From a bacterium (lineage in GTDB: Bacteria > Patescibacteriota > Minisyncoccia > Phycocordibacterales > Phycocordibacteraceae): a stretch of 64,000 nt of DNA. A program made the translations under genes and the position numbers. The stretch spans positions 433,992 through 497,991 of the forward strand of contig JBBCGK010000001.1 in assembly GCA_037200965.1 (NCBI GenBank). Direction: 5' to 3'. The notes under the pieces are model-generated. The model made no database searches, was not told the origin of the DNA, and saw nothing but the letters and a program-made list of their open reading frames with translations. Below are positions 40,811 through 51,743 of the stretch, one piece after another (the first letter of the stretch is position 1; the number at the start of each line of letters is the position of its first letter).

Positions 40811-40812
40811 AC

Positions 40813-41427
40813 GATATCCACAAATCACTGCTGCGCAGCGCGGGCCTCGCGCATCTCTCGGCGGATGAGATTGGGGACTTGAGGGACTTGGCAGCGCATG
40901 AGCTACGGAATGAGACCGCGGACCGCGGTGGTCTCATGGCGGGATTGCGACTGCGCCTGCAACAATGCGACACACGGCTATCACGCCTTACAGACGCGCT
41001 CCTCGACCACCTCATCGAAAAGCAGGAATACGAAGCCAAGAAGGCCGCGCTCCTGGGCGAGCGGCGCGAACTGCTAGACAAACTGGAAAGCCCGGAGGCT
41101 TCGCGTCAACCCGCCGACGGCGTGCTGCAAGCATTGGAACTGCCAGATGTCGTGGAAACACGCTACGAAATGGCTTTGCCGGACCAACGGCGCCGCATTG
41201 CGTCTGCAATCGCTTGGAACCTAACTGGTAGCGGAAAAGAGGCCGTACCTGAGCTGAAATCTCCGTACCGGGAGATCGTACAGTGGCGTCTTTCCAATCC
41301 GGTGCGCCGTAACGGGGAGCGATCGGAACCTGACATAAAGCTGCTATACGAAGCGCTCAAAGAAGTCTGCCGGCGAGAAGACAAGCCGCCGCAACGTCCC
41401 CAACGTCCTGATGTCTCCGGCATATAA
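40813..41427 (+). pseudogene. Large serine recombinase, C-terminal fragment (5'-truncated at R2)
   Basis: The frame is open from the first base after R2. The coiled-coil segment LRLRLQQCDTRLSRLTDALLDHLIEKQEYEAKKAALLGERRELLDKLE is typical of the C-terminal domain of large serine recombinases. No catalytic N-terminal resolvase domain is present. Confidence 0.65.
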
Positions 41428-41494
41428 GGCGACATACTTTTTCGAGAATTGTCGCGCCTTATGCCGCGTGAATGTCAGGCAGATGCTGTTCTGC

Positions 41495-42724
41495 ATGGAT
41501 GCGAGCATCAGCTACTTCGCCCGCACCAACTTCCGCAACCGAAACCAGCTCTTCGGTGTGAGGCAAGCCGACCGTCTTTCGCACCTGTACGTCATCGGCA
41601 AGACTGGCACGGGCAAGTCCACCCTCCTTGAAACCCTCGCCCGGCAAGACCTTCGGGCCGGGCGCGGCTTCGCCCTCATAGACCCGCACGGCGATCTCGT
41701 GGAACGGATCGCGAGGGACGCGCCGGAAGCCGTCTATCTGAACGCCCCCGATCCCTCCCAGCCCTTCGGCTATAATCCGCTCCGGAGGGTCAGGGACGAC
41801 AAGATACCGCTTGCCGTCTCGGGCTTCCTCGAAACCCTCAAGAAGCTCTGGCCCGACGCGTGGGGCGTGCGCATGGAGCACGTCCTTAGGAATACGCTGT
41901 ATGCGCTATTCGAGCAGGAGGATGCGCGGCTTCCCGATATCCTCCGCCTCTATGCCGACGAGACATACCGGAAGGCGCTCGCCAAGGGGATTAGGAACGA
42001 TACCGTCCGCCGCTTCTGGCTCCATGAGTTCGAGCACTTCCACTTTCGCCAGAGGGCGGACGCCGTGGCTCCGATACAAAACAAGATCGGGGCGCTCCTT
42101 GCCGACCCCACGCTCTATCGCATCCTCGTCGAGCCAAAGGAGGATATCCGCTTCCGTGCCCTCATGGACGGCGGCGGGGTTCTTCTGGTCAATCTCTCGA
42201 AGGGCAAACTTGGCGAGGACAGCTCGCACATCCTCGGCGCGCTCATCGTCTCGACCCTGGGCCTTGCTGCCTTTAGTCGGGCCGACAGTCCCCCAACCTC
42301 CCGCCGCCCTTTCTTCGTCTATATCGACGAATTCCAGTCCTTCACGACCCTTATGCTCGCCGACATGATGTCGGAGCTGCGGAAGTACGGCGTGGGCCTT
42401 ACCTTGGCGCACCAATATATGCACCAGCTTGAACCCGAGATACGGCATGCGGTTCTGGGGAACGCTGGGACGCTCATATCATTCCGTGTTGGCCCCGAGG
42501 ATGCGTCAATCCTGGCGAAGGAGTTTCAGCCGACGTTTGACACACACGATCTCCTGAACCTGCCTAACCACCATATCTATCTGAAGCTGATGATTGATGG
42601 GGTGCCGGGCGGGGCGTTTAGTGCAAATACAGTCGATCATTCGACGCGGGGAGAGACAAAGCTCGCACCGCTACGAAGGACTTCAGACTTGAATGCGGGC
42701 GAAAGCGCGTCTGACTATGTGTGA
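41495..42724 (+). CDS. P-loop ATPase, type IV secretion coupling-protein-like (TraD/VirD4-type DNA-binding domain)
   Basis: Walker A VIGKTGTGKST, Walker B FFVYIDEFQSF and LAHQYMHQL. The start is taken at MDASISYF, because the track ORF start at 41411 overlaps the recombinase fragment. Confidence 0.7.
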   Translation: MDASISYFARTNFRNRNQLFGVRQADRLSHLYVIGKTGTGKSTLLETLARQDLRAGRGFALIDPHGDLVERIARDAPEAVYLNAPDPSQPFGYNPLRRVRDDKIPLAVSGFLETLKKLWPDAWGVRMEHVLRNTLYALFEQEDARLPDILRLYADETYRKALAKGIRNDTVRRFWLHEFEHFHFRQRADAVAPIQNKIGALLADPTLYRILVEPKEDIRFRALMDGGGVLLVNLSKGKLGEDSSHILGALIVSTLGLAAFSRADSPPTSRRPFFVYIDEFQSFTTLMLADMMSELRKYGVGLTLAHQYMHQLEPEIRHAVLGNAGTLISFRVGPEDASILAKEFQPTFDTHDLLNLPNHHIYLKLMIDGVPGGAFSANTVDHSTRGETKLAPLRRTSDLNAGESASDYV

Positions 42725-42859
42725 GCGGGATCACGTTTTTTTGCAGATGGCACGCCCGCGTGGGCTGTTTTGGTAATTGCCATAGCGTCTTGGCAACAAC
42801 TGGGCGTCAGTACCTGGCTTCCCTCACAGGTTGAATATATTACAGTATAGCTCAACCAT

Positions 42860-49601: not shown

Positions 49602-49603
49602 GA

Positions 49604-49840
49604 GTGCTCGACATGGCCGGAACGCTCGATTGCTTTGTCCGCCTTGTTGAACTCGACACCTGCGTGCGTGAGTTGGCACAGCGCAAGCGCGCGAATAATA
49701 GGATCAGCATATCCGATCTTGATGACGTTCTCCTGGCGCTTGCTGAAGCTCGGGAAACGATCCAGGACGACGCGTATGACGAGATGGCGAGGCGGCGAGC
49801 GATAACAACGGCGGACATAATGCAGTTCGCAAAAGATTAG
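49604..49840 (+). CDS. Hypothetical small protein
   Basis: 78-aa ORF starting 2 nt after the GNAT stop. No motif recognised. Confidence 0.35.
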   Translation: MLDMAGTLDCFVRLVELDTCVRELAQRKRANNRISISDLDDVLLALAEARETIQDDAYDEMARRRAITTADIMQFAKD

Positions 49841-50107
49841 CGAAAGCGCGCGGCTCTATTCAAAACGCGGCCTACGACAAGTTCGCAACTATTCGTCCGA
49901 CAACACTCGCCCGATAACGGATCATTCGGCAACCAGAGGATAATGAGTATATCGCGGGAGCGAAGCATAGGAGACGATGCAGTGCATAGTCCGTCATAAA
50001 TTCAACGGCGGCATCCTGATGGTAGCTGTATAACAGCGTGGTGCCGGAACTTCCCCTTGTAGCCAATACCGGGCTTCGTTACAAAGCTTCAAGGGGAGGC
50101 TATATGC

Positions 50108-51743
50108 ATGCTTAATCACACCTTTGGAGTGATCTCGCTGGGTCGTTTCCTCACTGCTATACGTCCTGCGCGTTATGCGGTCCGCTCTGCCAATCGAACA
50201 CGCTTCGGCCAAGGGCTGGTCTCGGTCCGCACCCTAGTCGTCGCTGCGTGCGTTGCAATGAGTTGGCTAGCCGCATTGCCGCAAGCCGCCATCGCGAGCA
50301 GCGTCTTGATGAGCGTGCCAGGCGAAAGCGACGTAAACTCGGCGGGTGCCTTCACATATTCACTTCCTATTGCAGTTCCGCCCGGGACTGCCCGCATCGT
50401 ACCGCGACTGTCGCTTGATTATTCCAGTCAAAGCGGCAATGGCCTCCAAGGCCTCGGCTGGTCGCTTTCCGGATTGCCGGCAATAGGAAGATGCGCGCGC
50501 ACGGTGGCGCAAGACGGCGTGCATGGCAGTGTCAATTACGACGGCAGCGACAAATTCTGCTTGGAAGGCCAGCGCCTAGTCGCCCTAAGCGGCGTCTATG
50601 GCGCGAACAATACGGAATATCGTACCGAAATAGAGAGTTTCACCAAAATTATTTCATACGGAACGGCGGGTAACGGGCCAGCCTCGTTCAAAGCGTGGAC
50701 CAAGTCCGGTCAAATCCTGGAATTCGGAAACACGGCGGATTCCCGTATCGAAGCGGTCGGCAAGACAACGGTGCGCGCGTGGGCCGTCAATAAGGTTTCC
50801 GATGCCAAAGGAAACTACGTCACGGTCGAATACACCGACGACCAAACTAACGGAGAGGCGTATCCGGTTCGGATTGATTATACCGGCAATCCCAACGCAA
50901 CGCCGGTGGTTATGCCGTACAATTCCGTGCAGTTCACATACACAACGCGCGCAGATATCACGATTGCCTATCAGGCCGGTTCGCAGCAGAAGATCACAAA
51001 ACTTCTCACCAATATTAAGACTTATCAAGCCGCGAATTTGGTTTCCGACTATCGCCTTGCCTATCAAGCCGGCTCATCGCTCGCACATTCGCGTCTAACG
51101 TCCATCACGTTATGTGATGGGTCGGGTACGCCGGTATGCCTTGCCCCCACGACCTTTGGCTGGCAGGGTGGCAGCGGTAGCCTGCCGACAATGACCGGGA
51201 CCGCATCCACTATCATTCCGACGCAAAGCGGTGATTTCAACGTTGACGGATTAACAGACCCCTTTGTCAAAGCCCCGTATTTTGGAACTCAGAGCGGAAC
51301 GTTCGTCGCGAGCGGCATGACTATAAGCTATACCGACCCCATATCGGGATTGCCGTGGTCGGGTCTAACGGCTTTCCCCAACACAATGGTCGGGTTTGTA
51401 TTGGGTGATACCGACGGAGACGGGTATAGCGACGTCACCGCGATGCGGGGTATCGCACATGGCGCTTATGCCAGGTTGGTGGTTACGCGCAACGACCAGC
51501 TCGGAAATCTTGGTCAGATCGGCCTGATCGATCCGCTGCATGCTGGCGCCATATTCAGCGGCGACTTCAATGGAGACGCGCGCACGGACGTTTTCGTGAC
51601 GGGTGTAGCTTCTTATAACAGTACGACGTATCTGAGCCTGGGGACCGGATCGTTCACCGCCATCAACATGAGTTCGGTATATGAACCCATCACGACCGCC
51701 GATTTTGATGGTGACGGATGCACCGATTTCTTGGGATCGACTA
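50108..51743 (+). pseudogene. SpvB/TcdB-type toxin-complex protein, N-terminal part with FG-GAP/VCBS repeats (3'-truncated at R3)
   Basis: AGAFTYSLPIAVPPGTARIVPRLSLDYSSQSGNGLQGLGWSLSGLPAIGRC is the SpvB N-terminal signature. Later GDFNVDGLTD, GDTDGDGYSD, GDFNGDARTD and ADFDGDGCTDF are FG-GAP/VCBS repeats. The protein sense ends at the repeat, and the track ORF beyond 51743 is read-through into unrelated DNA. Confidence 0.75.

Follow-up and report, generated by a model that had tools for sequence, protein, structure and literature searches.

A 10.9-kb insert in the repeat array of a stand-alone cas1-cas2 locus in Patescibacteriota, probably captured as a single fragment of alphaproteobacterial-type DNA

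In a 64,000-nucleotide (nt) stretch of the genome of a Phycocordibacteraceae bacterium (Patescibacteriota; assembly GCA_037200965.1, contig JBBCGK010000001.1, positions 433,992 to 497,991; hereafter the window), an array of 36-nt direct repeats adjoins the genes cas1 and cas2. The second of its five inter-repeat intervals, S2 (40811-51743), is a single insert or 'spacer' of 10,933 nt with a GC content of 0.60. We consider it probable that S2 was acquired in one insertion event, as contiguous mobile-element or island DNA of alphaproteobacterial type, and that the array is of CRISPR type, served by a stand-alone cas1-cas2 pair that has no effector nearby and encodes a rulerless integrase.

The repeat, GTTGCACAACCTCCTTTTTACGAACGATCCTGCAGG, occurs in six plus-strand copies with zero mismatches, starting at 38559, 40775, 51744, 53328, 54739 and 57678; in cas orientation, on the minus strand, it reads CCTGCAGGATCGTTCGTAAAAAGGAGGTTGTGCAAC (e.g. 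in R2). R1 (38559-38594), the leader-distal copy at the end of the array, is 16 nt from the start codon of TatD and is followed by the exact copies R2 (40775-40810) and R3 (51744-51779), which are the left and right borders of S2, the exact copies R4 (53328-53363) and R5 (54739-54774), and the leader-proximal R6 (57678-57713). Conservation between the copies is confined to the 36 nt, flanking bases differ, and the repeat lies outside tRNA and tmRNA genes. The five intervals measure 2180, 10,933, 1548, 1375 and 2903 nt, and the limits of S2 are exactly 40811-51743 because exact repeat copies bound it on both sides. A scan of the window allowing up to three mismatches found no additional copy (chance expectation 0), and exact 22-mers of the repeat had no match in genome and metagenome contig sets, which do not include the source genome. 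The first-pass annotation, made by eye, had reported no internal or degenerate repeat in S2, and sensitive searches for a copy that might subdivide the insert agreed with it: ungapped comparison on both strands gave at best 19 of 36 positions (median maximum in shuffled S2, 20); a profile hidden Markov model (HMM) built from 27 repeat variants of the Cas1 clade, run with nhmmer --max, scored 27 bits for each of the six array repeats and at most 1.8 bits (E=3.6) inside S2; and blastn-short found no word longer than 9 nt shared between the repeat and S2.

The array lies downstream of cas1 (58039-59094, minus strand; 351 amino acids (aa); Pfam E 1e-63; NCBIfam TIGR00287, 221 bits; PADLOC E 3e-68) and cas2 (57746-58042, minus strand; 98 aa; Pfam E 0.003; PADLOC Cas2b E 9e-7), with a leader-like interval of 32 nt (57714-57745, minus strand) from the cas2 stop codon to the first repeat, a layout that recurs in related loci. 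The cas1 gene best fits generic, I-B, I-D and I-C type models, and acidic and histidine residues of the Cas1 active-site type are invariant throughout the clade. Adjacent cas1 and cas2 are as found in CRISPR-Cas adaptation loci, and near-identical direct repeats (~23-50 nt) in one orientation beside cas genes are as found in CRISPR arrays. The short uniform spacers of such arrays (~25-70 nt) are absent, those of the window measuring 1375-10,933 nt, and so are linked effector or interference genes: there was no effector gene among the genes of the window, and no recurrent Cas effector among 108 open reading frames (ORFs) within 6 kb upstream of cas1 at 21 loci.

Both ends of S2 adjoin open frames of at least 150 codons, i.e. 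genes that the repeats cut. On the left, a 5'-truncated gene (40813-41427, plus strand) stays open over 204 codons, starting at the border with the repeat, and encodes the probable C-terminal ~200 aa of a large serine recombinase. The frame had no Pfam, NCBIfam or PDB match; in pairwise comparison, it aligned at 25% identity (E 1e-6) with residues 339-496 of a serine recombinase of 515 aa from a Sulfitobacter plasmid. On that plasmid the recombinase gene is situated 1.3 kb upstream of the gene whose product is, among plasmid homologues, the closest (49% identity) to the ATPase encoded next in S2. From these sequence comparisons, a truncated serine recombinase is a plausible but weakly supported assignment, and its catalytic domain would be missing from S2 because R2 cuts the gene. 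On the right, a gene for an SpvB/TcaC-N and FG-GAP toxin component (50108-51743, plus strand; 545 codons) is truncated at its 3' end by R3: the SpvB and FG-GAP homology ends at residue 542, at R3 itself, where homologues of ~900-950 aa go on with TcdB_toxin_midN. In two homologue contigs, RHS/YD-type genes come after the SpvB homologue.

Between the cut ends, ten genes are apparently full length, one of them (~66 aa) without a normal start codon. The first encodes an ATPase of TrwB or type IV coupling protein (T4CP)-like, HerA/FtsK type (41411-42724, plus strand; phrog_5156, E 3e-46), full length at 437 aa and in agreement with the 456-aa ORF of a viral-contig homologue. It is followed by a RimK/cyanophycin-synthetase-like ATP-grasp ligase (42860-43864, plus strand; family match) and a small protein with an N-terminal signal peptide and no family match (43957-44262, minus strand). 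Two nuclease genes are divergent, one for an S1/P1 nuclease with a complete domain (44358-45341, minus strand; E 4e-48) and one for a DNA/RNA non-specific endonuclease (Endonuclease_NS; 45454-46359, plus strand; E 9e-40). Beyond the gene of the ~66-aa family (46669-46866, plus strand), where CTG occupies the start position of homologues and may reflect early decay of a captured gene, family matches identified an XRE-type helix-turn-helix regulator (46866-47339, minus strand), a LysR-family regulator (47350-48393, minus strand) and a 388-aa protein with a GNAT acetyltransferase domain (48435-49601, plus strand), and a 78-aa ORF without family match (49604-49840, plus strand) completes the series. 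These calls rest on Pfam, NCBIfam and PHROGs searches, which confirmed all families listed by the first-pass annotation apart from the serine recombinase, for which the pairwise match was the only one. A pairing of an ATP-grasp gene with a T4CP-like ATPase also occurs in an unrelated array, that of locus L032 (Taylorbacteria), since one of its spacers holds an ATP-grasp gene (13945-14892) and the next an ATPase fragment (16040-16462) that begins directly after the repeat and is 44% identical to residues 268-408 of the S2 protein.

Alphaproteobacterial affinities were found at the left, in the middle and at the right of S2. The left end resembles the Sulfitobacter plasmid, through both the ATPase homologue and the recombinase; the XRE gene had 638 plasmid matches, nearly all in Rhizobium, Sinorhizobium, Agrobacterium and relatives (Rhizobiales and other Alphaproteobacteria); and the named SpvB homologues, at 42-51% identity, belong to Rhizomicrobium and Bradyrhizobium. 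The two halves of S2 are alike in GC-normalised tetranucleotide usage (r = 0.83), and the composition is compatible with one high-GC foreign donor, which it does not prove. These affinities bear on whether S2 might instead be composite, a shorter spacer later enlarged by a mobile element with the recombinase and the T4CP-like ATPase. Such a history would suit its length, far in excess of all other spacers, and a left part of plasmid, phage or integrative and conjugative element (ICE) type beside chromosomal-island-like genes on the right. We nevertheless regard it as decidedly improbable: S2 has no internal gene fragments, insertion sequence (IS) ends, att-like or inverted repeats, its halves match in composition and its affinities run the same way from end to end, and the element could not have integrated itself there because its recombinase-like gene is the very part cut by R2. 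The earlier description of S2 as one contiguous captured piece is thus upheld by the lack of internal repeats, the cut ends and the apparently intact inner genes, and further by the like halves, the shared affinities and independent contigs.

Those contigs matter because the point at which the circular contig JBBCBH010010897.1 (960,259 bp) was linearised falls inside the window and inside S2, between 46708 and 46709; the join was therefore checked. The ~66-aa gene spans it, and among the 186 homologues of its product the best-scoring ones listed mostly align in one stretch across the join; a Logan contig from run SRR28211700 equals window positions 42578-49173 at 100% identity. The end-to-start join is real. 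On the right, JAATEX010000139.1, from a second NCBI assembly, covers the window from 47300 through R3-R6, cas2 and cas1 at 99.94-99.98% identity, and on the left the same assembly agrees with TatD, R1 and S1 up to 40774. In GCA_015689235.1 the genes of the left part of S2 are on a contig of 6,629 bp that has 302 nt ahead of the first of them. Its coordinates put its start ~141 nt before R2, so that it should span this repeat; the distance is a typical k-mer overlap with the contig that ends at 40774. In the short-read assembly GCA_015655515.1 there is one break at 47300 and another exactly at the border of S1 and R2 (40774), with a 3-nt difference at 47309-47311 and the intervening 6.6 kb on a separate contig under GCA_015689235.1; population heterogeneity or uneven coverage at S2 may account for these breaks. 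The same breaks, the separate 6.6-kb contig and the position of the source contig's end and start inside S2 are what an assembly chimera, with the DNA of another organism joined at the repeat, would have to offer in its favour. We give that explanation scarcely any credence: an intact conserved gene and the Logan contig both cross the join, JAATEX010000139.1 confirms the R3 side, the start of the 6.6-kb contig coincides with a k-mer overlap, and at least 17 independent loci from other projects have this architecture as well.

Kilobase-scale spacers are a property of this Cas1 clade and not an artefact. Among 63 loci fetched by Cas1 profile, each with only 10 kb of flank, nearly all of those with Cas1 46-88% identical to that of the window carry a related 37-nt repeat ~30 nt past cas2 on the cas strand, with the consensus CCTGCA..GTCGCAAAAAGGA..TTGTGCAAC. 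Eighteen arrays, the window's included, hold 50 spacers, which apart from S2 (10,933 nt) measure 140-4242 nt; the median is 1478 nt. A 138-kb Kaiserbacteria contig encodes a Cas1 88% identical to ours together with cas2 and five related 37-nt repeats spaced 1369-2414 nt apart, and the named Cas1 relatives are all Patescibacteria, the closest being a metagenome-assembled genome (MAG) of Candidatus Kaiserbacteria. Ordinary arrays, with a spacing of 64-80 nt, accompany the Cas1 relatives of at most 34% identity, which come from Chloroflexota, cyanobacteria and others. In a MAG of Aenigmatarchaeota, a DPANN archaeon, locus L041 combines a Cas1 of 38% identity with 38-nt repeats at 11310-11347 and 12892-12929, the repeat starting ~40 nt after the cas genes and the two copies lying 1582 nt apart around a spacer of 1544 nt. 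This clade-wide recurrence excludes both an artefact and a synthetic linker. The latter had been considered because the repeat ends in an SbfI site (CCTGCAGG), and was rejected on finding diverged versions beside homologous cas genes in related genomes. Repeats of the clade share a Shine-Dalgarno-like AAAGGA(G) ~10 nt from the 3' end in cas direction and end in inverted pentamers, TGCAC...GTGCA.

S2 is the largest of the 50 spacers, as the first-pass annotation had supposed for the inserts it saw. That annotation also took S2 to set the upper size for the integration process; it is indeed the largest insert measured, and ~11 kb is a lower bound on maximal insert size, not a ceiling, given the 10-kb flank limit and a repeat-to-repeat interval of 12,050 nt elsewhere. 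The latter interval, in CAVYRH010000003.1, is followed by a 'spacer' (L039, 9966-11120; with L034) that is a partial cas1-cas2 copy, made up of cas1 residues 112-346, cas2 and leader, and the MAG to which CAVYRH010000003.1 belongs has at least four Cas1 loci (L023, L027, L034 and L039). At L003 (Cas1 82% identical), a direct repeat (9959-9986 and 11409-11436; 18 nt exact, 28 nt at 86% identity) flanks the whole module of cas1, cas2, leader and single repeat. It may be a target duplication, i.e. the module itself may have been inserted; among 24 loci, only L003 had such a duplication flanking the cas module.

The other inserts point to diverse sources. S1 (38595-40774) encodes a homologue of phage PurZ (PHROG 1211, E 6e-72) preceded by a MazG-like pyrophosphohydrolase, and S3 encodes a phage protein of which viral contigs contain 379 relatives; a pattern scan of viral contigs found no relatives of PurZ or of a 523-aa protein of S5. 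PurZ and MazG-like genes are a pair known from phages that replace adenine with 2-aminoadenine (Z-base DNA), and S1 would be the oldest spacer. Spacers of other arrays carry genes for an outer-membrane beta-barrel, MazF, IS200, an ArdC-like protein and metabolic enzymes. No exact protospacer was identified, and no spacer is common to arrays of different genomes. In L037, stretches of spacers 1 and 3, 4 and 6, and 5 and the tail are 79-92% identical, some of them in opposite orientation, suggesting that one kind of element was sampled repeatedly. Spacer ends showed no motif resembling a protospacer-adjacent motif or a restriction site, base counts being flat. Of 76 spacer borders, 53% adjoin open frames of at least 100 codons, and random internal positions do so in 62% of cases (p=0.17). 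The borders thus fall at random with respect to genes; the inserts are fragments and not gene cassettes, and a reading as integron-like gene cassettes was rejected on this ground.

Among contigs from different samples whose Cas1 is 100% identical, the sequences part exactly where the first repeat ends on its distal side: after it, three of them have chromosomal flank and three have more than 1.1 kb of other DNA (L003, L004 and L008 versus L005, L006 and L007). Beyond this variant insert a new repeat was not observed. As judged from their sequences, these contigs are consistent with a natural before-and-after of a recent insertion at the cas-proximal repeat in part of a population.

In the mechanism that we propose, the integrase would take up linear double-stranded DNA fragments of ~0.14-11 kb from phages or other bacteria, regardless of gene boundaries, and would attach each fragment by its two 3' ends to the leader-proximal repeat, at both borders of the latter. 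The 36/37-nt repeat would then be duplicated by gap repair, which would be why each insert is flanked by identical repeats. S2 would be a single capture of a 10.9-kb fragment. Acquisition would presumably be polarised, and the array might serve as a memory of invaders, as a means of gene gain, or be a neutral by-product. A different route to the same end product would be a circle carrying one copy of the repeat, which recombined into an array repeat by homologous or Cas1-independent site-specific recombination in the manner of an integron cassette; such a circle might derive from another array or strain, as a spacer-repeat unit cut out of it. The repeats, 100% identical, provide 36 bp of homology, and several cas modules per genome together with partial cas1-cas2 copies in arrays indicate that repeat-associated rearrangements do occur. 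This route nonetheless merely defers the question, as the circle itself must stem from an array with a repeat-flanked S2; the donor was not a natural plasmid or phage with an intergenic repeat, because both ends of S2 cut genes, and spacers held in common by arrays of different genomes were not found. We think it unlikely.

Several observations weigh against the capture of S2 by Cas1-Cas2 in one event. S2 is an outlier, 2.6 times the length of the next-largest spacer (4242 nt). Known Cas1-Cas2 complexes measure prespacers of ~30-40 bp, so a mode of action other than theirs would be required for kilobase substrates, and we infer catalysis of the insertion by Cas1-Cas2 from sequence. Effectors may be encoded beyond the window, elsewhere in the ~0.96-Mb genome. 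That a second assembly probably crosses R2 follows only from gene coordinates. Neither a donor nor a syntenic relative of S2 was found: homologues of its genes had no common neighbours, whether for the endonuclease in metagenome contigs, the ATPase in viral contigs or the contexts of SpvB, and a nucleotide-level alignment of S2 to plasmids in distant mode returned three short weak matches. The GC content of S2 (0.60), its raw tetranucleotide usage and its codon usage are host-like (r ~0.9; host ~60% GC), and after GC normalisation the tetranucleotide correlation of S2 with the host is 0.72-0.82, compared with 0.86-0.93 within the host and 0.77 between S2 and proteobacterial contigs.

Such host-like GC content and codon usage, as well as isolated repeats away from cas2 in some related loci (L027, L031), would be expected if S2 were native chromosomal DNA between two separate arrays, R1-R2 and R3-R6, joined or split by rearrangement. 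That explanation is very improbable in our view. Both junctions are precise, a gene being cut exactly at a full repeat each time; the R1-R2 part lacks a leader and cas genes of its own; the genes that S2 carries are alphaproteobacterial in type; and the GC-normalised composition is no nearer to the host than to proteobacterial contigs. An exact-protein look-up, in an index that is not exhaustive, also placed the ATPase, GNAT and endonuclease of S2 at one place per contig.

A wider proposal, which we hold tentatively and as possible rather than probable, is that the stand-alone Cas1-Cas2 of ultra-small symbionts (Patescibacteria and at least one DPANN archaeon) constitutes a natural system for kilobase-scale DNA capture, from 0.1 to at least 11 kb, which would operate without effector or ruler at one chromosomal site, as a platform for gene acquisition or as a long-RNA memory of invaders. 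If gene acquisition is its role, S2 delivers ten apparently full-length genes, two secreted nucleases among them. In the literature we found neither CRISPR spacers of kilobase scale described nor, for bacteria of the Candidate Phyla Radiation (CPR), this arrangement of cas1 and cas2, and a Cas1-Cas2 system with spacers hundreds to thousands of bases long is apparently undescribed. Insertion of up to ~11 kb at a defined repeat by this Cas1-Cas2 would, if true, mean that the best-known property of CRISPR adaptation, short spacers whose constant length a protein ruler dictates, does not hold universally. It would assign a concrete, testable activity to the cas1-cas2 loci without effectors in CPR bacteria, which are poorly understood. 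It would also offer an enzyme, occurring in nature, for placing DNA of gene size at a specific site, a possible tool, and a direct record of the phages and neighbours met by uncultured symbionts, here an alphaproteobacterial element and a phage with Z-base-DNA genes.

The chromosomal setting of the locus is one of housekeeping genes, with TatD, S6, SSB, EF-P, RecA and FtsK on one side of the array and cas genes, and on the other side MetRS, an AI-2E transporter and a class II tRNA synthetase. Elsewhere in the window, at 1-2093 and 14762-20235 (minus strand), lies an rRNA operon with introns: the 16S gene is interrupted by an insertion encoding a LAGLIDADG_2 endonuclease (740-1483), the 4.3-kb 23S gene contains a group I intron (16313-16529) and a LAGLIDADG_1 ORF (17187-17726), and between the 5S gene and the 23S gene there is a further LAGLIDADG ORF (15323-15778). 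Insertions of the 16S gene share short repeats with those of the 23S gene.

Known systems resemble the array in part. Like tandem islands or ICEs at one att site, it consists of kilobase-sized foreign blocks with short direct repeats, and S2 carries genes of mobile-element type; unlike them, its blocks contain no intact integrase, the sole recombinase-like gene of S2 being a C-terminal fragment cut by the repeat. A self-integrating island or ICE was rejected, as such an element has an intact terminal recombinase and att site, where here ~200 C-terminal residues of weak similarity are left. With integrons the array shares one-sided growth, kilobase-scale inserts, a recurring site beside an integrase gene and the possibility of complete genes. 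It differs from them in that the integrase is Cas1-Cas2 and not a tyrosine recombinase, in its identical 36-nt repeats as opposed to the variable imperfect palindromes of attC, and in insert borders that are random to genes, which lie in both orientations. An integron was likewise rejected: no IntI tyrosine recombinase with attI adjoins the array, the neighbours being cas2, cas1, MetRS and TatD, and tyrosine recombinases account for 3 of the 108 upstream ORFs at 21 loci.

Casposons, too, tie a Cas1-family integrase to kilobase-scale insertion, and the 18-28-nt duplication flanking the cas module of L003 is reminiscent of them. Unlike in casposons, no family-B polymerase gene was detected adjoining cas1, the inserts lack terminal inverted repeats and cas2 is present, and heterogeneous foreign fragments, with no defined self-mobilising element, are stacked at one site between direct repeats. 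A casposon was rejected on the grounds that no polymerase lies beside cas1, that the repeats are direct and that the flanking duplication occurs at 1 of 24 loci. As in CRISPR Cas1-Cas2 modules, adjacent cas1 and cas2 accompany 36/37-nt direct repeats that are identical and end in short inverted motifs (TGCAC...GTGCA), the array follows directly downstream of these genes on their strand, each insert is unique and most are foreign, and strains differ at the cas-proximal repeat. In contrast to CRISPR arrays, with their fixed spacers of ~30-40 nt, spacers here range very unevenly from 140 nt to 10.9 kb, no effector or CRISPR RNA-processing genes are linked, the leader extends only 32 nt after cas2, and the inserts carry whole genes. 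The process would amount to ordinary CRISPR adaptation minus the measurement of length, and in that respect would be casposase-like.

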